Shown: positions 56,471-64,000 of the stretch, piece by piece | Layout of the letters: every line of letters starts with the position of its first letter | Position numbering within the stretch: position 1 is the stretch's first letter | The notes under the pieces: generated by a model | What the model saw: the letters and a program-made list of their open reading frames with translations, nothing else | What the model was told of the DNA's origin: nothing | The model's database searches: none | Origin: Patescibacteria group bacterium | Lineage (GTDB): Bacteria > Patescibacteriota > Doudnabacteria > UBA920 | Assembly: GCA_013387205.1 (NCBI GenBank) | Contig: WARV01000024.1 | Location: 11,283 to 75,282, forward strand | Length of the DNA: 64,000 nucleotides | Reading direction: 5' to 3' | Translations under genes and position numbers: made by a program

Positions 56471-58780
56471 TTATCTATCGAAGTTTCTTCTTGGCGGGCG
56501 GGAACCTCCGTGGCCTCCCCTGCCTCCGCCATGGCCGCCGCGATGGGAACCTCCGCCCATGCGCGGGCCGCGGTATTCATCGTATTCGGCATGAGCACCT
56601 GCCCCAGCTCCTCTGCTTCGCTCGGAACCTAAGCCAGCCGGCGCGGCTTCGGCAAAAGGCTTGTGGGTCAAGTTAATCCTTCCCTGCTCGTCAATCTCGC
56701 TGACCTGGACTTTTAACTTATCGCCAATCTTAACCACGTCTTCCACGCGGTTCACTCTGTAATTGGCCAATTGCGAAATATGCACCAGGCCTTCCTTGCC
56801 TGGCAAAACTTCCACGAACGCGCCAAAGTCCATCAGCCTGGTCACCTTGCCTTCATAAATTTCGCCCGGCTCGACTTCTTTAACAATGTTCTGAATCCAT
56901 TCCACCGCTTTCTTGGCGCTTTCTGCGTCGGTCGATGTCACCATAACCAAACCATCATCTTCAATATCTATTTTAACGCCCGGACAGTTGGCAATAATTT
57001 CGTTAATAGTCTTGCCGCCGCTTCCGATAACTTCGCGGATCTTGTCCGGCTTAATCTTAAAGCTGGTAATGCGCGGGGCATACGGGGAAAGATCGGGACG
57101 CGGCGCAGGTAAAGCTTCTTTCATCTTGGATATAATGTGGATACGCGCCGGCTTGGCTTGGGCCAAAGCTTTAGCCAAAATTTCCGGAGTCAATCCTTTA
57201 ACTTTGATATCCAATTGCAAAGCAGTTACGCCTTCTTCGCTTCCTGTTACTTTAAAGTCCATGTGGCCGTTAAAATCTTCTATTCCGGCAATGTCAGTTA
57301 ACACTTTAAAGTGCTCGGGATTGCTTTCGTCCATAACAAGCCCCATGGCACAGCCGCCGATAATGTGCTTAATAGGCACGCCGGCATCCATAAGTGCAAG
57401 TGTCGACCCGCAAGTAGAAGCCATAGAAGTTGATCCATTGCTGGACATTATTTCAGAAACCAAACGCATGGTATAAGGGAATTCTTCCTGGGCAGGAAGC
57501 GTAACTTCTACAGCGCGTTCGGCTAATGCGCCGTGGCCGATTTCGCGGCGGCCAGGGCCGCGGATTGGAGCGACTTCGCCTACGGAATAACCTGGAAAAT
57601 TGTAATGGTGGATATATCTCTTGGCGCGACCCTCTATCGGATCTTCCATTCCGTCCAAAGTCTGCTCATCGCCCTTGCTGCCCAAAGTGATGGTTGTCAA
57701 AGCCTGGGTCTCGCCTCTTGTAAACAGCGCGCTGCCATGGGTTCTGGGCAAAACGCCGACTTCGCAGGTTATGGGGCGAGTTTCATCTAATTTCCTGCCG
57801 TCCACGCGGCGCTCGTGCTCTAAAATCTGCTTCTGCTGGAATTTTTTCAGAATTTTATCAATGCATTTATCCACTTCTTTTTCAATATTCACACCTTCCA
57901 GTTCTCCGAGTTCAGATGCCACTTTTTCCAAAATTTGTTTGGAAATATTATCGATATTTTCTTCGCGCTGCTCTTTACTCTTTACATAAACAGCCGGCTC
58001 AATAACACCGGAAGTCAGCAAGCTGCTGACTTTGGCAAAAACCTGTTCGTTGGGTTTTATAATGACCGGTTCAACTTTTGCCGTGCCTATTTCTTTGCTG
58101 AAATCTTCCTGGCATTTGACCAGCGCGCCCAAAAACGGCTGCGCGAATTTTATAGCTTCCACAATTTCTTCTTCGCTGACCAAATTGGCGCCGGCTTCCA
58201 CCATTATAATATGCTCGCCGGTTCCGCAGACAATCAAATCCATGCTGCTTTTTTCCTGCTGCTCGTGAGTCGGGTTTATTACGTATTGGCCGTCAATTTT
58301 TCCCACGCGGCATCCGGCAACCGGGCCGTCGTAAGGGATTTTGCTTATGGCCAAAGCCATGCTGGCAGCATTGACCGCCACAATATCAGGTTCGTTTTCA
58401 CCGTCAACGGATAAAACCGTGGCAATTACTTGCACGTCATTTCTCATTCCTTCGGGGAACATGGGCCTAAGGGTCCTATCTATAACCCTACCTTTTAAAA
58501 TGGCTCCATCAGTGGCACGGCCTTCCCTTTTGACCCAGCGGCTGCCCTTTATTTTGCCGGCAGCGTATAATCTTTCCTCGTAATCTACTAAGAGCGGAAA
58601 AAAGTCCACGCCTTCGCGCGGGGTTTTTCCCATTACCACAGTGGCTAACACCACGGTATCGCCCAAGCGGGCAACCACCGCGGCATCGGCCTGTTTGGCA
58701 ATTTTTCCTGTTTCAAATACAAAATCCTTCTCGCCAACCTTGCACGAGACTTTCTTGGACACTATTTGGTTATTCTCCAT
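56471..58780 (-). CDS. pnp: Polyribonucleotide nucleotidyltransferase (PNPase) with C-terminal RGG/Gly-His-rich tail
   Basis: 769 aa from the ATG at 58780 (AAGGA SD), with two PH domains, KH and S1. Tail: ..GAGAGAHAEYDEYRGPRMGGGSHRGGHGGGRGGHGGSRPPRRNFDR. Confidence 0.95.
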   Translation of the reverse strand: MENNQIVSKKVSCKVGEKDFVFETGKIAKQADAAVVARLGDTVVLATVVMGKTPREGVDFFPLLVDYEERLYAAGKIKGSRWVKREGRATDGAILKGRVIDRTLRPMFPEGMRNDVQVIATVLSVDGENEPDIVAVNAASMALAISKIPYDGPVAGCRVGKIDGQYVINPTHEQQEKSSMDLIVCGTGEHIIMVEAGANLVSEEEIVEAIKFAQPFLGALVKCQEDFSKEIGTAKVEPVIIKPNEQVFAKVSSLLTSGVIEPAVYVKSKEQREENIDNISKQILEKVASELGELEGVNIEKEVDKCIDKILKKFQQKQILEHERRVDGRKLDETRPITCEVGVLPRTHGSALFTRGETQALTTITLGSKGDEQTLDGMEDPIEGRAKRYIHHYNFPGYSVGEVAPIRGPGRREIGHGALAERAVEVTLPAQEEFPYTMRLVSEIMSSNGSTSMASTCGSTLALMDAGVPIKHIIGGCAMGLVMDESNPEHFKVLTDIAGIEDFNGHMDFKVTGSEEGVTALQLDIKVKGLTPEILAKALAQAKPARIHIISKMKEALPAPRPDLSPYAPRITSFKIKPDKIREVIGSGGKTINEIIANCPGVKIDIEDDGLVMVTSTDAESAKKAVEWIQNIVKEVEPGEIYEGKVTRLMDFGAFVEVLPGKEGLVHISQLANYRVNRVEDVVKIGDKLKVQVSEIDEQGRINLTHKPFAEAAPAGLGSERSRGAGAGAHAEYDEYRGPRMGGGSHRGGHGGGRGGHGGSRPPRRNFDR

Positions 58781-58898
58781 AATTATCCTTTGCCCTTGTT
58801 TTAAACAAGGGCACATGAAATGATTTGCGCGTTGACGATGACTTGGTTTAAGTCCTCGCTGTACCCGCAAACCATTTCTTAATTATTTTTAAAAATTT

Positions 58899-59303
58899 TC
58901 AACTTATTGTGACGGCTGGATTAGCCAAGACTTCCTTTATCTTTTCCAAAATTTCGTTCGGGGTAAAGTATGCTTTCACCAAAAAAGCCTGGGCGTTTAA
59001 CACTTTGGCTTTTAAGATATCCTCATTGCTCCACAGGTTGCTTAAGACAATCACCGGGGTTTTAGCAATAGATTGGTCTTTGTTGCCCCTTAAAATATCC
59101 AAAATTTGGAAACCGGAAAGTTCCGGCAGCATCAAATCCAGCATGACCAGGTCTGGTTTTTCTTTTAAGATTAAATCCAAGCCCTTTTTCCCGTCCTCCC
59201 CTGCCTTTATGTCAAAACCAGCCGTGCTTAACTTGTGGGATATTATTTCCCTCATAGCCATGTCGTCTTCCACCATGACAATTTTGTATTTTTTATCAGC
59301 CAT
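58899..59303 (-). CDS. Single-domain response regulator (CheY-like receiver)
   Basis: 134 aa with the conserved D13/D57/K107 positions. Confidence 0.8.
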   Translation of the reverse strand: MADKKYKIVMVEDDMAMREIISHKLSTAGFDIKAGEDGKKGLDLILKEKPDLVMLDLMLPELSGFQILDILRGNKDQSIAKTPVIVLSNLWSNEDILKAKVLNAQAFLVKAYFTPNEILEKIKEVLANPAVTIS

Positions 59304-59433: not shown

Positions 59434-59895
59434 TTAGGAAGAAAAAACTTCTTTTCTTTGATTTATTTTAAAAAAATCAGATATTGGGATTTCTTGATCC
59501 TGTACTAAATTTATCTCCAAAGCCTCTTTAGGTGGAAACCAAGAATATTCTGAATGTTCAGCAATGTTCAATGCGACTTCCGGTTTACTATCTATTTCTA
59601 TAGCAAAAATATAAAACATAAAATCCGTATCGCCATGCCTCACATAATAGCATCTTTCGTACTTAGTTATTTTATCCATAGTGACGTTTATGCCTGTCTC
59701 TTCAAAAGTTTCCCTGCAAATAGCATCTTCCAAACTTTCCCCGTTGCCTACTTTTCCTGCCGGAGGCCCCCATTTCTTTTCTTGAGGCTTGCCTGCCTGT
59801 CTTTTAAGCATCAATATCTTTCCATCATTTATTATAAACAACGACACCACATCAAACTTTTTACTAAAACCTTTTATGGGATTAATAGATATCAT
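59434..59895 (-). CDS. NUDIX hydrolase
   Basis: 153 aa. Nudix box GKVGNGESLEDAICRETFEETGI. Confidence 0.8.
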   Translation of the reverse strand: MISINPIKGFSKKFDVVSLFIINDGKILMLKRQAGKPQEKKWGPPAGKVGNGESLEDAICRETFEETGINVTMDKITKYERCYYVRHGDTDFMFYIFAIEIDSKPEVALNIAEHSEYSWFPPKEALEINLVQDQEIPISDFFKINQRKEVFSS

Positions 59896-60056
59896 ATAAA
59901 TGAAATAAATTATGCTTATGTTATACCAAAACTGGAGTTTTTATGCAAAATATGCTATAATTTCTAATAGTTTGAAGGCTTATAATGATACAAATAACAA
60001 ATAATCCTCCATCCATAAAAACGTAAAGGCAGCAAAACATCATTAATGAAATCTTA

Positions 60057-61148
60057 ATGTTCTCTGAATTTAAAGAATTTGATAACCATGAGTTGCTCAT
60101 ACATTTCAACGACAAAGATACAGGATTAAAAGGCTTTATTGCCATACATAATACGACTTTAGGGACTGCTACTGGGGGAACCCGCTACCGCATTTACCAG
60201 ACAGAAGAAGATGCTTTAAAAGACGTGTTAAGGCTTTCTCAAGCCATGACATACAAGTGTGCTTTGGCAGACGTTCCTTTTGGTGGCGGAAAAGCGGTGA
60301 TAATGGCCGACCCGAGGCAAACCAAAAACGAAGAAATCCTTTTTGCTTATGCACGCAAAATCAATTTTTTAAAAGGGAGTTTTACAACCGGCGAAGATGC
60401 CGGGTTAAATGACGAAGATGTAAAAGTATTAAGCAAGGTATCGCCTTACATAAACGGAGCCTCTTGCGGGCAGGAAGGACTGTCTTTTTGGGCAGCCAAA
60501 GGAGTTTATGAGGCAATGAGGGCAGGATTAAAATTTAAATGGCATGCGGATAGTTTTGCAAATAAAACCATAGCCATAAAAGGCTTGGGCAAACTTGGTT
60601 TTGCCCTTTGCGGTTTGCTTGTAGAAAGTGGCGCTAACGTTATCGCTGCTGACATAGACCTGGAAACTGCAGCCCGCGCATTAAAAAAATATCCGAACAT
60701 TAAAATAACTGACGCACAGACTATTCACAAACAAGAAGTAGACATCTTTAGCCCTTGCGCTTTAGGGAACGATATAACGCCAAAAACTATCGAAGAACTT
60801 AAATGCGGTATGGTGTGCGGAGGAGCTAACAACCAGCTGGCTGACAAAGAATGCGGACAACGTCTGCACGAGCGAGGTATCCTATACATACCGGATTATG
60901 TAGCTAATGCCGGAGGACTCATTAGGGCAGTAGCAGACATGACAGTTAAGGGCGGCGATGTCCACAACTGGGTTGAAGCAAAAGTAAAAAATATATACGT
61001 AACCTCAACTGTGATAATTTATGAATCAATCAAAAATAATTTATCAACAAGCGATGTTGCAAATCGCCTGGCTCTAGAAAAATTAGCTGCCGGAGCCAAA
61101 ATAAAAGAAAAAGAAAAATATGAGCTCAAACTTTCCAAAGCAATTTAA
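60057..61148 (+). CDS. Glu/Leu/Phe/Val dehydrogenase family amino-acid dehydrogenase (leucine/phenylalanine dehydrogenase-like)
   Basis: 363 aa with the catalytic-Lys motif VPFGGGKAVI and an NAD Rossmann motif GLGKLGFALCGLL. Confidence 0.8.
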   Translation: MFSEFKEFDNHELLIHFNDKDTGLKGFIAIHNTTLGTATGGTRYRIYQTEEDALKDVLRLSQAMTYKCALADVPFGGGKAVIMADPRQTKNEEILFAYARKINFLKGSFTTGEDAGLNDEDVKVLSKVSPYINGASCGQEGLSFWAAKGVYEAMRAGLKFKWHADSFANKTIAIKGLGKLGFALCGLLVESGANVIAADIDLETAARALKKYPNIKITDAQTIHKQEVDIFSPCALGNDITPKTIEELKCGMVCGGANNQLADKECGQRLHERGILYIPDYVANAGGLIRAVADMTVKGGDVHNWVEAKVKNIYVTSTVIIYESIKNNLSTSDVANRLALEKLAAGAKIKEKEKYELKLSKAI

Positions 61149-62643
61149 TTGCCAAGAAGCTGACTTAGTAATTAGGCAAATCCAAAAATTCAACGGATTT
61201 TTTTGGGATCGCGTACGAAAAAAAAGGATGCTGCAGCTGTTTCATCAGGCGGCCCATAATGTACCTGCCTACAAGGATTTTTTGAAAAAAAATAAAATTT
61301 CTCCAGATAAAATTAAAACCCTCGCCGATTTTCGGCTAGTACCGCCGGTCACTAAAAAAAATTATTTAACCCAATACCCTCTTGAACTGCTAACTTGGAA
61401 AGGGTCAGATAAACAGACTACTATTTTTACCTCTACCTCTGGTTCTACAGGCCAGCCCTTCTACTTTCCCAGACAATACCAGCTGGACTGGCAATCATCT
61501 ATCACTCACGAATTATTTTTAACCAGCGGAACCCACGACTTAAAAAAACCTATTCTGATTATAGACAGCTTCGGGATGGGGGTTTGGATAGGAGGACTGA
61601 TAACTTATAAAGCTTTTGAGTTAGTGGGACAAAGAAAAGAAATTCCGCTTTCAATTATCACCCCTGGCATCAACAAAATAGAAATTTTTAAAACAATTAA
61701 AAATCTTACGCCGTATTTCAAGCAAATAATTTTGGCAGGGTATCCCCCGTTCATTAAAGATGTAATAGACGAAGCAATAGCGCAAGGTATTAATCTCAAA
61801 CAGCTTAAAATCCGCACATTATTTGCAGCGGAGCCGTTTAGCGAAACATTCAGGGAACACCTCGCTAAGCAGGCAGGCATAAAAAATATTTTTTTAGATA
61901 CAGCAAACATTTATGGTTCCGCGGACTTGGGAACCATGGCTTCCGAAACCCCAACTTCCATTTTAATACGGCGAATTGCCCACCAGCACCACGATATTTT
62001 CAAACAATTATTTTCCAATATAAACAAAACTCCTACACTTGCGCAGTACAACCCATTTTTCATAAATTTTGAGTCAGAAAACGAAGAAATTTTTATTACG
62101 GGCAATAACACCCTCCCCCTAATACGGTACGGCATAGGAGACCACGGCGGAGCCTTAACCTTTAATGAAGTAGAAAGCCTACTGGCAAAAAACAGTGTGA
62201 ATTTAATTTCAGAGGCCAAGAAAAACCATTTATTACACCACGTATATAAATTGCCGTTTGTGTATGTTTACGAAAGAAAAGATTTTTCCACCACGCTGTA
62301 TGGCCTGCAGGTTTATCCGGAATATATCCGCGAACCTCTGCTGCAGGCCCCTTTAAACAAAAATTTAACCGGCAAGTTTTTGATGGAAACAAAATTCGAC
62401 AAAAAACATAACCAATATCTGGAAATAAACCTAGAACTGCAGAAAACCAGACAAGCCACCGAACGCTTACTCAAAACTGCCACGCAAAAAATTATGCACG
62501 GTCTGACATCCAAGAGTTCAGAATACAAGGAACTTTACCATCATTTAAAAAAGCGAGCTATACCAAAACTGGTATTTTGGCCTGCTGAACATCCTTTATA
62601 TTTTAAGAAAGGAGTTAAACAAAAATGGGTACAAAACCATTAA
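61120..62643 (+). CDS. PaaK / coenzyme-F390-synthetase-like adenylate-forming enzyme (ANL superfamily)
   Basis: 507 aa with an AMP-binding P-loop analogue FTSTSGSTGQPFYFP, YGSAD and RYGIGD. It overlaps the upstream gene by 29 nt. Confidence 0.7.
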   Translation: MSSNFPKQFNCQEADLVIRQIQKFNGFFWDRVRKKRMLQLFHQAAHNVPAYKDFLKKNKISPDKIKTLADFRLVPPVTKKNYLTQYPLELLTWKGSDKQTTIFTSTSGSTGQPFYFPRQYQLDWQSSITHELFLTSGTHDLKKPILIIDSFGMGVWIGGLITYKAFELVGQRKEIPLSIITPGINKIEIFKTIKNLTPYFKQIILAGYPPFIKDVIDEAIAQGINLKQLKIRTLFAAEPFSETFREHLAKQAGIKNIFLDTANIYGSADLGTMASETPTSILIRRIAHQHHDIFKQLFSNINKTPTLAQYNPFFINFESENEEIFITGNNTLPLIRYGIGDHGGALTFNEVESLLAKNSVNLISEAKKNHLLHHVYKLPFVYVYERKDFSTTLYGLQVYPEYIREPLLQAPLNKNLTGKFLMETKFDKKHNQYLEINLELQKTRQATERLLKTATQKIMHGLTSKSSEYKELYHHLKKRAIPKLVFWPAEHPLYFKKGVKQKWVQNH

Positions 62644-63770
62644 TCTTCAACGCGAAAGAAATCTCAGTTGAAAATATAAAAAAACAGGTTAATCCTGCCA
62701 AAGTTCTGGATTCATTTTCTGAACAGTTACATGAATTGTTTTTAATCCGCAATCCCCGCTTCCGCTTTAATAAAGATTTCGCCCAGGAACTCGAAACTTT
62801 TATTAACGATTTTAGGCAAGAAAAAACACTGGAAGAAACAGGTTATTGGGTATTTTTTCCTTGGAACGAAACTCTAGTTCATTATTTACCGGAAGTTGAA
62901 CACCTGGAACTAAGAACAGCTAGAAATAAAAACCTGATTTCCGGCCAAGAGCAGGAAAAATATTATAACGCGACAGTTGGAGTTGCAGGCTTGAGCGTAG
63001 GCAGCCACGCAGCCCTGACTTTGGCCATGACTGGCGGGGCCAAGAACATCAAACTGGCTGACCCGGACACTATTTCCGTTTCCAATTTAAACCGCCTCCG
63101 CTATGGGGCCATGCAAGTCGGTCTTAACAAAACAGAAGCTGCCGCTCATTTCATATACGAAATTAATCCCTATTCCAATATTTTTCTTTATCCCGAAGGG
63201 ATAAATCAAGACAACATTGAAGAATTTGTAAAAGGGTCGGTATCTGTTCCTAAACTTGATATTCTTTTGGAAGGCGTGGATAATTTAGAGATGAAAATTC
63301 TGCTCAGAGAGTATGCCAAAAAAGCCGGCATTCCCGTGGTTATGGCTACGGATAACGGCGACGGAATTATTGTCGATGTGGAGAGATACGACTTGGAGCC
63401 CGACTTGTTATTATTTAACGGCGCGCTGGGAAATTTCAGTATTGAGGATTTCCGGAATTTCCCTCCGCAGCAGCTGCCCCAGCTTGCCACTAAAGTCGCA
63501 GGGCCTGATTATGTGGTACCAAAAATGCTTGCCTCGGTATTTGAAGTAGGAAAAAGTTTATATTCTTGGCCACAGTTAGGCACAGCGGCGACTTTTACAG
63601 GAGTAGCTACTGCATACCTGACAAGAAACATTATTAACAACAAGAATATCAAAAGCGGTAAATACGACATAAATTTAGACTCTATCTTTGAAAGCGATTA
63701 CACAAACCTGTCTATTGCCCAAAACCGCCAGGAAGAAAGAAAATCTTTGCTAAAAAATTTAGGTTTATAA
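62625..63770 (+). CDS. E1-like / ThiF-MoeB-family adenylyltransferase with about 130-aa N-terminal extra domain
   Basis: 381 aa with a Rossmann motif VGVAGLSVGSHAALTLAMTGG and the E1 signature DPDTISVSNLNRLRY. It overlaps the upstream gene by 19 nt. Confidence 0.75.
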   Translation: MGTKPLIFNAKEISVENIKKQVNPAKVLDSFSEQLHELFLIRNPRFRFNKDFAQELETFINDFRQEKTLEETGYWVFFPWNETLVHYLPEVEHLELRTARNKNLISGQEQEKYYNATVGVAGLSVGSHAALTLAMTGGAKNIKLADPDTISVSNLNRLRYGAMQVGLNKTEAAAHFIYEINPYSNIFLYPEGINQDNIEEFVKGSVSVPKLDILLEGVDNLEMKILLREYAKKAGIPVVMATDNGDGIIVDVERYDLEPDLLLFNGALGNFSIEDFRNFPPQQLPQLATKVAGPDYVVPKMLASVFEVGKSLYSWPQLGTAATFTGVATAYLTRNIINNKNIKSGKYDINLDSIFESDYTNLSIAQNRQEERKSLLKNLGL

Positions 63771-63774
63771 AATT

Positions 63775-64000
63775 ATGGATCCCATCCCCCGAGACCACAT
63801 TTACAAAATTTTGGAAGCTGGAGGGCAAGCACCTTCGGGAAGCAATTCACAACCTTGGAAATTTAAGGTAAACGGCAACACCATAGAAATTATTGCCTTA
63901 CCGGAAAAAGACCATCCTATTTTGAATTTCAGGTATCGTGGCACTTGGATTGCGCACGGTGCACTAATAGAAAACCTACTAATAGCCGCATCTGCATTGG
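63775..64000 (+). CDS. Nitroreductase-fold protein (5' partial; runs off window end)
   Basis: MDPIPRDHIYKILEAGGQAPSGSNSQPWKF.. is the classic nitroreductase N-terminal motif. It starts 5 nt after the E1-like stop. Confidence 0.7.
   Translation, partial: MDPIPRDHIYKILEAGGQAPSGSNSQPWKFKVNGNTIEIIALPEKDHPILNFRYRGTWIAHGALIENLLIAASAL

Follow-up and report, generated by a model that had tools for sequence, protein, structure and literature searches.

The stretch of DNA analysed here, a window of 64,000 nucleotides (nt) from a member of the Patescibacteria, or candidate phyla radiation (CPR), ends in a plus-strand block of four genes (60057-64000) that is cut by the window end. The genes encode an ELFV-family NAD(P)-dependent amino-acid dehydrogenase, a PaaK-family adenylate-forming enzyme, a ThiF/E1-like ATP-dependent adenylating cyclase, and the beginning of a nitroreductase-superfamily flavin-dependent oxidase (FDO), and together they constitute a real, translationally coupled functional cassette. 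With slightly better than even confidence, the cassette is read as the CPR version of the pathway that turns N-acyl amino acids into oxazolones, as represented by OxzAB, TyzACB, and TrzAS. Compared with the known systems, the CPR cassette would use a PaaK-family ligase in place of an N-acyltransferase, and it is almost always linked to a sensor kinase. CPR bacteria are regarded as nearly devoid of secondary and lipid metabolism, and a literature search found no paper linking Patescibacteria or the candidate phyla radiation to the oxazolone pathway. The names under which the cassette proteins stand in databases are generic or wrong.

Three systems that make N-acyl oxazolones serve for comparison, OxzAB of Pseudoalteromonas rubra and both TyzACB and TrzAS (Rv1356c/Rv1355c) of Mycobacterium tuberculosis, in which an N-acyltransferase places an acyl group derived from acyl-CoA on Tyr, Phe, or Trp and a ThiF-like enzyme cyclises the product with ATP; the substrates that the ThiF and FDO pair converts to oxazolones are N-acylated Tyr, Phe, or Trp (PMC10404671, PMC12856293, bioRxiv 10.1101/2020.06.11.147165). 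TyzACB (Rv2336, Rv2337c, Rv2338c) and OxzAB produce tyrazolone and phenazolone (PMC10404671; bioRxiv 10.1101/2020.06.11.147165), and the TrzAS proteins of M. tuberculosis, M. smegmatis, and Rhodococcus synthesise N-acyl tryptazolones (PMC12856293). Biosynthesis of this kind was first described between 2021 and 2025, in Proteobacteria and in mycobacteria. What oxazolones do in the cell has yet to be settled (discussion of PMC12856293); in the Trz and Oxz studies, it is speculated that they are signals, and genes for cyclic di-GMP (c-di-GMP) adjoin trzAS (PMC12856293). A GGDEF gene adjoins the TrzS-type fusion of a Rhodococcus plasmid locus (L091) included in the present comparison.

The ThiF-like enzyme and its flavin-dependent partner

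The four open reading frames (ORFs) lie where the first-pass annotation, made from the sequence without database searches, had placed them. ORF1 occupies 60057-61148 (363 amino acids, aa), ORF2 61120-62643 (507 aa), and ORF3 62625-63770 (381 aa), and ORF4 starts with an ATG at 63775 and reaches the window end at 64000 after its N-terminal 75 aa. ORF1 and ORF2 overlap by 29 nt and ORF2 and ORF3 by 19 nt, ORF3 and ORF4 are separated by 4 nt, and no terminator-like site was found on the plus strand within the block. Because all genes in the 20 kb upstream of 60057 are on the minus strand, this position is taken as the start of a new transcription unit. A substrate or precursor gene had been suspected in the leader (59896-60056), but the sole ORF there is 30 aa long and not conserved in relatives.

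ORF3 is recognised as ThiF by Pfam, and its best family match in NCBIfam is NF005901, 'Rv1355c family protein', at 291 bits over profile positions 30-341 of 722. The next best E1/ThiF model, ThiF itself, gives 82 bits against a cutoff of 159, and the TcdA and MoeB models fall in the range of 46-51 bits (46 for TcdA, cutoff 304; 50 for MoeB, cutoff 266). The ThiF parts of the Tyz and Oxz systems, compared via their models, match ORF3 at much lower scores than NF005901 does (NF011424 and NF011425, 47-55 bits; NF006077, 70 bits). By sequence, ORF3 is placed in the TrzS/OxzB/TyzB cluster and not with MoeB, ThiF, TcdA, or MccB, the Tyz and Oxz members of that cluster being represented by NCBIfam models.

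The extra N-terminal domain that had been noticed on the E1-like protein is real (approximately residues 1-100, pLDDT ~90), but it is no peculiarity of ORF3. In BLASTP, residues 21-351 align with the TrzS-type fusion of L091 (32% identity, E 7e-53), a protein annotated by PGAP as a member of the Rv1355c family that scores 846 bits on NF005901, and the extension is therefore regarded as a family feature common to TrzS. A hairpin region specific to the N-terminus of TrzS (WxxFPW...H) is also present in ORF3. The proposal that this domain might be a peptide clamp of the MccB/PaaA type or a RiPP (ribosomally synthesised and post-translationally modified peptide) recognition element (RRE) was rejected for lack of a structural match: in structure comparison, the ORF3 N-domain does not superpose on the MccB/PaaA clamp, and the clamps add nothing to the MccB/PaaA match. 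AclA (9egb) heads the solved structural relatives, and a literature search returned no paper on it.

The residues known to matter in TrzS could be placed via the mutagenesis primers in the supplement of PMC12856293, in which the D217A substitution abolishes cyclisation and R540A impairs desaturation (PMC12856293). D217 of TrzS (VEEC[D]SLD) corresponds to D200 of the Rhodococcus protein (EEC-D200-SFD) and to D219 of ORF3 (EGV-D219-NLE), and D219 is invariant in 27 CPR sequences, as are R157 (of the SNLNR motif), K169, and D146 among CPR homologs. Judged from these residues, the adenylation (ATP) site of ORF3 is intact. The SNLNR signature cited for it by the first-pass annotation stands (SVSNLNRLRY), but the strict GxGxxG does not, the glycine loop reading G-V-A-G-L-S-V-G-S. 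ORF3 contains no cysteine, which excludes the zinc-ribbon, thioester, and persulfide chemistry of MoeB, ThiF, and E1 enzymes.

In NCBIfam, the 75-aa fragment of ORF4 aligns to positions 374-441 of NF005901 and is also matched by NF011424 and by models of the Acg family, which are FMN oxidoreductases; a homolog search with the fragment yielded short fragments only. Since ORF3 and ORF4 match successive parts of NF005901, their sequences identify them as a split version of the TrzS (Rv1355c)-type ThiF-nitroreductase fusion, with ORF3 equivalent to the N-terminal half and ORF4 to the C-terminal half. The fragment has the APSG-N-QPW motif, G53, G59, and N64, all of which are kept in TrzS and in 69 CPR homologs. 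Full-length FDO homologs are 350-357 aa long and reach 172-179 bits against the C-half of NF005901. L014, the nearest relative that shares the gene order, scores 306 bits with its ThiF half and 179 bits with its FDO half, and the summed score of 486 bits exceeds the 476-bit cutoff of this full-length equivalog model. Neither the clustering with MoeB, ThiF, or TcdA nor the NfsB-like nitroreductase that the first-pass annotation had set against its own reading was found; for the ThiF and FDO pair, NF005901 is the best family match. Statements on the complete FDO, on the kinase described below, and on the TrzS positions R540 and Q651 rest on relatives at 45-65% identity; R540 and Q651 were assessed in CPR homologs, the FDO in the window ending at residue 75. 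In these homologs, the Q651 position is His or Gln, whereas R540 is not kept.

In architecture, then, TrzS is a fusion, while the CPR proteins are encoded by two genes, as are TyzB and TyzC; in three CPR loci, ThiF and FDO form a single ORF. Another architecture of the family is seen on a Kitasatospora plasmid (NZ_CP108248; L090:6137-7987), where a 616-aa protein combines a 257-aa N-domain with a TrzS-like ThiF half (414 bits on NF005901), followed by a ketoacyl-ACP synthase III gene and with no adjacent FDO. In two Doudnabacteria loci (L007:3143-4150 and L008), no FDO follows the ThiF gene, and an Acg-family nitroreductase (NF047509, 202 bits; cutoff 199) is instead found after a TrmB-like regulator and ahead of the ELFV gene, an arrangement that looks like replacement by a paralog.

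The upstream enzymes and the proposed pathway

ORF2 has no Pfam match, and its matches in NCBIfam, to PaaK and F390-synthetase models, are weak and confined to the N-half (TIGR02155, PaaK, 63.7 bits, cutoff 646; NF041878, 57 bits, cutoff 700). The domain searches that had been suggested for the cassette thus recovered the ELFV and ThiF proteins through Pfam and the nitroreductase fold through NCBIfam, but the PaaK-like protein not through Pfam and only faintly through NCBIfam. By the NCBIfam cutoffs and Pfam, ORF2 does not reach the equivalog level at which it would share with phenylacetate-CoA ligase both the substrate and the acceptor CoA. Its AF2 model (pLDDT 87.7) has PaaK1 (2y27) as its top Foldseek match in the PDB (E 5e-24, TM 0.81 to the target), followed by BT_0428 and then by the PaaK-family ligases NatL2, AjiA1, and ClxA, and a profile search of the PDB finds PaaK at E 3e-11. 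Invariant in the ORF2 family, which comprises 747 clusters at 50% identity (E<=1e-30, profile search of 1.84 billion representatives), are the P-loop TSTSGSTGxPFYFP, the YG-x-AD and RYxIGD motifs, and a C-terminal Lys. ORF2 is accordingly modelled as a PaaK-type two-domain enzyme of the ANL superfamily with intact adenylation motifs. It shares this fold with PaaK (2y27, 2y4n), BT_0428, NatL2, AjiA1, and ClxA (TM 0.8 to PaaK1) but only 15-18% identity, and it is ~75 aa longer owing to an insertion at approximately residues 345-378 and a C-terminal helical extension. The PDB entries of NatL2 and ClxA are PaaK-family ligases with bound aromatic acid substrates and their adenylates. NatL2, AjiA1, and ClxA make ester or amide bonds independently of CoA, and their place among the structural neighbours counts in favour of the pathway proposed below.

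ORF1 carries both ELFV domains, ELFV_dehydrog_N and ELFV_dehydrog (PF02812 and PF00208), and shares the full fold and the catalytic Lys/Lys/Asp with the known Leu, Phe, and Trp dehydrogenases (DHs) and with ScyB. Its nearest solved relatives are LeuDH (6acf, 252 bits), which is closest overall, TrpDH (5b37, 231 bits), and PheDH (1bw9, 176 bits); its score on ScyB, 287 bits, lies below the cutoff of 600. ORF1 holds the equivalents of catalytic K68, K80, and D115, and the corresponding residues (K67, K79, D114 equivalents) are kept in all 27 cassette-linked ELFV homologs. On this evidence, ORF1 is a catalytically complete ELFV dehydrogenase. It is an accessory first gene of the operon. The position of LeuDH-A113 is Gly in 27/27 of these homologs and that of LeuDH-V291 is Leu in 22/27, a pocket that we take to be the PheDH pattern (G124/L307), although the literature search did not confirm the correspondence; from these residues, the substrate of ORF1 is likely aromatic or bulky. 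Unlike the known Leu, Phe, and Trp dehydrogenases, ORF1 sits in, and its homologs are sometimes fused into, a PaaK/ThiF cassette.

The slot directly upstream of the PaaK-like gene was surveyed in a census of 80 representative Patescibacteria loci, built by tblastn together with unbiased all-against-all clustering of ORFs, with taxon labels as in the deposited metagenome-assembled genomes. The slot holds an ELFV dehydrogenase in 27 loci and a HisC-like class I/II aminotransferase in 16, and the two are never found together in one locus. As both of these alternative enzymes interconvert amino acids and 2-oxo acids, such interconversion is proposed to be a step of the pathway.

The pathway can be sketched as follows, its chemistry being inferred by analogy. 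ORF1, or the HisC-like aminotransferase elsewhere, would turn an amino acid into its 2-oxo acid, or the reverse, and so supply one of the two partners, either the amino acid itself, probably aromatic or bulky, or a 2-oxo acid as the acyl partner. ORF2 would form an acyl-AMP from a carboxylic acid and join it, directly or via a thioester, to the amino group of the amino acid, standing in for the acyl-CoA-dependent N-acyltransferase. These first two assignments draw on position, conservation, and gene fusions, and fusions of the ELFV and PaaK-like proteins suggest a hand-over from ORF1 to the ligase. ORF3 would then adenylate the alpha-carboxylate of the N-acyl amino acid, allowing the amide oxygen to close a 5(4H)-oxazolone ring, and the FDO would desaturate the C-alpha/C-beta bond to give a conjugated alkylidene- or arylidene-oxazolone, both steps being modelled on the characterised homologs. 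The order of an N-acyl aromatic amino acid followed by ATP-dependent cyclisation and flavin-dependent desaturation would be that of TyzACB and OxzAB. The difference lies in the acyl donor, in that those systems use acyl-CoA through an N-acyltransferase with a FeeM/acyl-homoserine-lactone-synthase fold. TrzAS likewise has a TrzA-type N-acyltransferase where the CPR cassette has a PaaK-family ligase, and it lacks the amino-acid dehydrogenase or aminotransferase. A PaaK-family ligase with a dehydrogenase or aminotransferase, in place of an N-acyltransferase, would be well matched to cells that lack fatty-acid or CoA metabolism.

Conservation across Patescibacteria and the sensor kinase

The ThiF-like and PaaK-like proteins each have ~1,800-2,400 database relatives, and the named top matches are all from Patescibacteria (Doudna-, Magasanik-, Wolfe-, Kaiser-, Lipton-, and Paceibacteria); in GTDB, a pattern scan located the ThiF gene in 211 species representatives. 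With the genes denoted E (ELFV dehydrogenase), P (PaaK-like), T (ThiF-like), N (FDO), and H (seven-transmembrane, 7TM, histidine kinase), the order P-T-N-H is colinear in 64/80 loci, which bears out the co-localisation of homologs that the first-pass annotation had made a check of its proposal. The PaaK-like gene is next to or near the ThiF gene in 73/80 loci, and an FDO is present in ~75/80. Translational coupling is not peculiar to the source genome either, the median gaps over the 80 loci being 2 nt for E-P, 7 nt for P-T, 3 nt for T-N (70 pairs), and 4 nt for N-H, although ORF starts in the census were set mechanically and negative gaps may be over-called. The ThiF and FDO core chemistry is probably widespread in CPR bacteria.

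The association extends to gene fusions, namely ELFV~PaaK (P0256), PaaK~ThiF (P0265), ThiF~PaaK (P0334), and ELFV~PaaK~ThiF (P0344). Some of these may be assembly or frameshift artefacts, but the triple fusion recurs in identical form in two independent assemblies, with an FDO gene upstream and an alpha/beta-hydrolase gene and the same 7TM kinase gene downstream; the ThiF~PaaK variant retains FDO, alpha/beta-hydrolase, and 7TM kinase as well. Operon structure and fusions thus both show, at the level of sequence, that the four genes are coupled to one another and, in relatives, to the kinase. The alpha/beta-hydrolase, 291 aa long and located between the cassette and the kinase in these fusion variants (L092:9732-10607, L093:4550-5425, and L094:7681-8556), could be an oxazolone- or ester-processing enzyme. 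In nine other loci (L052, L056, L063, L064, L078, L080, L086, L015, and L023), an extra ORF of 310-340 aa with weak methyltransferase-domain matches lies between FDO and kinase.

Past position 64000, the remainder of the FDO gene and the gene for a polytopic (7TM) histidine kinase almost certainly follow in the operon. In relatives, this kinase has 7-9 hydrophobic segments that lead directly into HisKA and HATPase, with no soluble sensor domain. Upstream of the operon and divergent from it, the window contains a gene for a receiver-only response regulator (58899-59303, minus strand, 134 aa, Response_reg as its only Pfam domain). Orthologs with 45-64% identity are located divergently upstream of the ELFV gene in the nearest relatives (L013, L014, L058, L075, and L082), and a receiver gene precedes the PaaK-like gene in the same direction in L011, L020, and L057 and lies ~0.75 kb upstream in L065. 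From this synteny, the response regulator is inferred to be a candidate partner of the expected kinase.

Given the kinase expected in the operon, a tie between membrane signalling and the pathway's product, or one of its intermediates, is probable. Here, too, TrzAS offers a parallel, with adjacent or fused ThiF and FDO and with signalling genes nearby (c-di-GMP turnover in M. tuberculosis, a kinase in the CPR cassette), but the CPR kinase is co-operonic, and the hosts are mycolic-acid-containing actinobacteria in one case and a CPR bacterium in the other. A more specific reading, which is tentative and on present evidence rather improbable, is that the cassette and the kinase form a synthase-receptor unit in which the 7TM kinase senses the oxazolone, its N-acyl (dehydro)amino-acid precursor, or a hydrolysis product and signals via the single-domain response regulator. 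The molecule, membrane-active or reactive, would be made from scavenged amino acids, and the unit would be a widespread, Patescibacteria-specific circuit for sensing quorum or host contact. In the CqsA/CqsS, LuxM/LuxN, and AgrBD/AgrCA systems, small-molecule biosynthesis genes are similarly co-transcribed with a polytopic kinase that lacks a soluble sensor domain and have a response regulator nearby, but the CPR cassette has no homology to their synthases or sensors. Should the synthase-receptor reading be true, oxazolones would gain a dedicated receptor. The constant kinase link, with the genes nearly always in one operon with the polytopic sensor kinase, is the most interesting feature of the cassette, offering a testable route to the function of oxazolones and to how episymbiotic CPR cells sense their surroundings. 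About two thousand or more database entries per gene family, now named, for example, 'molybdopterin/thiamine adenylyltransferase', 'tRNA t6A dehydratase', or 'phenylacetate-CoA ligase', would moreover be corrected by the assignment.

Competing explanations and neighbouring genes

Several observations weigh against the oxazolone assignment. Among the features that mark the ThiF and FDO family, the cassette has the ThiF half, the adjacent FDO, and the catalytic Asp, but it lacks an adjacent N-acyltransferase and R540, and it is for this reason regarded as a variant rather than a plain member. The upstream N-acyltransferase that defines Oxz, Tyz, and Trz is absent, and the role of ORF2 in amide formation is proposed by analogy only; its similarity is in fact greater to CoA ligases (PaaK1, BT_0428) than to CoA-independent ones. 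N-acyltransferases are not recurrent in the 80 neighbourhoods, and a phmmer search with the putative TrzA-like protein of L091 found nothing at E<=1 in the CPR loci, an absence that equally fits ORF2 standing in for this enzyme. In most CPR FDO homologs, Ala or Met stands at the R540 position, so the FDO may have another substrate or role. Further, identity to TrzS is only ~32%, the window itself reaches only 75 aa into the FDO and stops short of the kinase, and the L007 lineage has, in place of the FDO-A-type gene, an Acg-family paralog elsewhere in the locus. The characterised FDOs depend on O2, which many CPR bacteria do without.

Part of this evidence would fit the same enzymes making a different product, with the carboxylate activated by ORF3 being caught by another nucleophile to give a lactam, an ester, a hydantoin-like ring, or an amide with a second molecule, and with the FDO catalysing another redox step. 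Varied nucleophile capture is documented for ThiF-like enzymes (review PMC12596934), and the Ala/Met at the R540 position, an acyl donor enzyme from a different family, and the extra alpha/beta-hydrolase (L092-L094) or methyltransferase-like gene (L052, L056, and others) between FDO and kinase all point the same way. This reading, the main alternative, is nevertheless considered unlikely: ORF3 is clearly closest to TrzS, including the specific N-terminal hairpin region, the FDO half has its nearest relatives among the FDO domains of fused ThiF-FDO proteins, and oxazolone formation is the sole characterised function of the ThiF and FDO pairing.

A housekeeping or RNA-related role, in which ORF3 would be a TcdA-like tRNA threonylcarbamoyladenosine (t6A) dehydratase or a MoeB/ThiF-type activator of a sulfur carrier and its neighbours would be unrelated or concerned with aromatic amino-acid catabolism, is very improbable, even when taken jointly with the catabolic version, in which the amino acid would pass via arylpyruvate to an aryl-acyl-CoA through PaaK. 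The pairing of an aminotransferase or dehydrogenase with PaaK does recall aromatic amino-acid fermentation. In some sources, homologs are annotated as 'tRNA threonylcarbamoyladenosine dehydratase' or 'molybdopterin/thiamine biosynthesis adenylyltransferase', TcdA likewise forms an oxazolone ring (review PMC12596934), and genes for tryptophanyl- and aspartyl-tRNA synthetases (TrpRS and AspRS) follow the cassette in ~20 loci. Against these stand the scores of ORF3 far below the TcdA, MoeB, and ThiF cutoffs given above, its lack of cysteine and hence of a CxxC zinc site and of thiol chemistry, and the fusions that join ELFV, PaaK, and ThiF in one polypeptide; no ThiS/MoaD-like gene is located nearby or recurs in the 80 neighbourhoods. 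The synthetase and chaperone neighbours are also lineage-dependent. TrpRS/AspRS, GrpE-DnaK-DnaJ, and ArgRS genes flank the cassette in a manner that varies with lineage while P-T-N-H stays constant, and TrpRS/AspRS and GrpE-DnaK-DnaJ were for this reason rejected as functional partners.

Barely credible is the RiPP-like cassette, in which a peptide C-terminus would be the target of the E1-like enzyme, activated as in MccB, PaaA, or thiazole/oxazole-modified microcin (TOMM) systems and the nitroreductase would be a SagB/McbC-type azoline dehydrogenase: an E1-like Rossmann core with a nitroreductase-superfamily partner is common to both, but the CPR cassette has neither a clamp or RRE match in the N-domain nor a precursor peptide gene nor YcaO, and its ThiF protein, with an intact site and 291 bits on the Rv1355c model, belongs by sequence to a small-molecule cyclase family. 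The class of product that the first-pass annotation had envisaged, a small molecule derived from amino acids, survives in the oxazolone reading, while its RiPP version and the analogy to MccB/PaaA, TOMM C proteins, and SagB/McbC do not. The partners it had advised looking for, YcaO, Ubl, JAB, and a small precursor ORF, were sought in the 80 neighbourhoods, and none of them, nor any conserved small ORF, is recurrent.

As for the genes around the cassette, in L016, L017, L046, and ~18 further loci of one CPR lineage, the kinase gene is followed, directly or a few genes on, by those for TrpRS and AspRS; TrpRS here adjoins a possibly tryptophan-derived pathway, an arrangement that is read as lineage synteny. 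In the window, a NUDIX hydrolase gene (59434-59895, minus strand) is located between the response regulator gene and the operon start. It was rejected as a member of the system, related loci giving weak and scattered matches only. Next to the response regulator gene on its other side, a PNPase-like ORF of 799 aa (56471-58870, minus strand) ends in a long Gly/Arg-rich C-terminal tail (…RGGHGGGRGGHGGSRPPRRNFDR), which is unusual for a bacterial PNPase.

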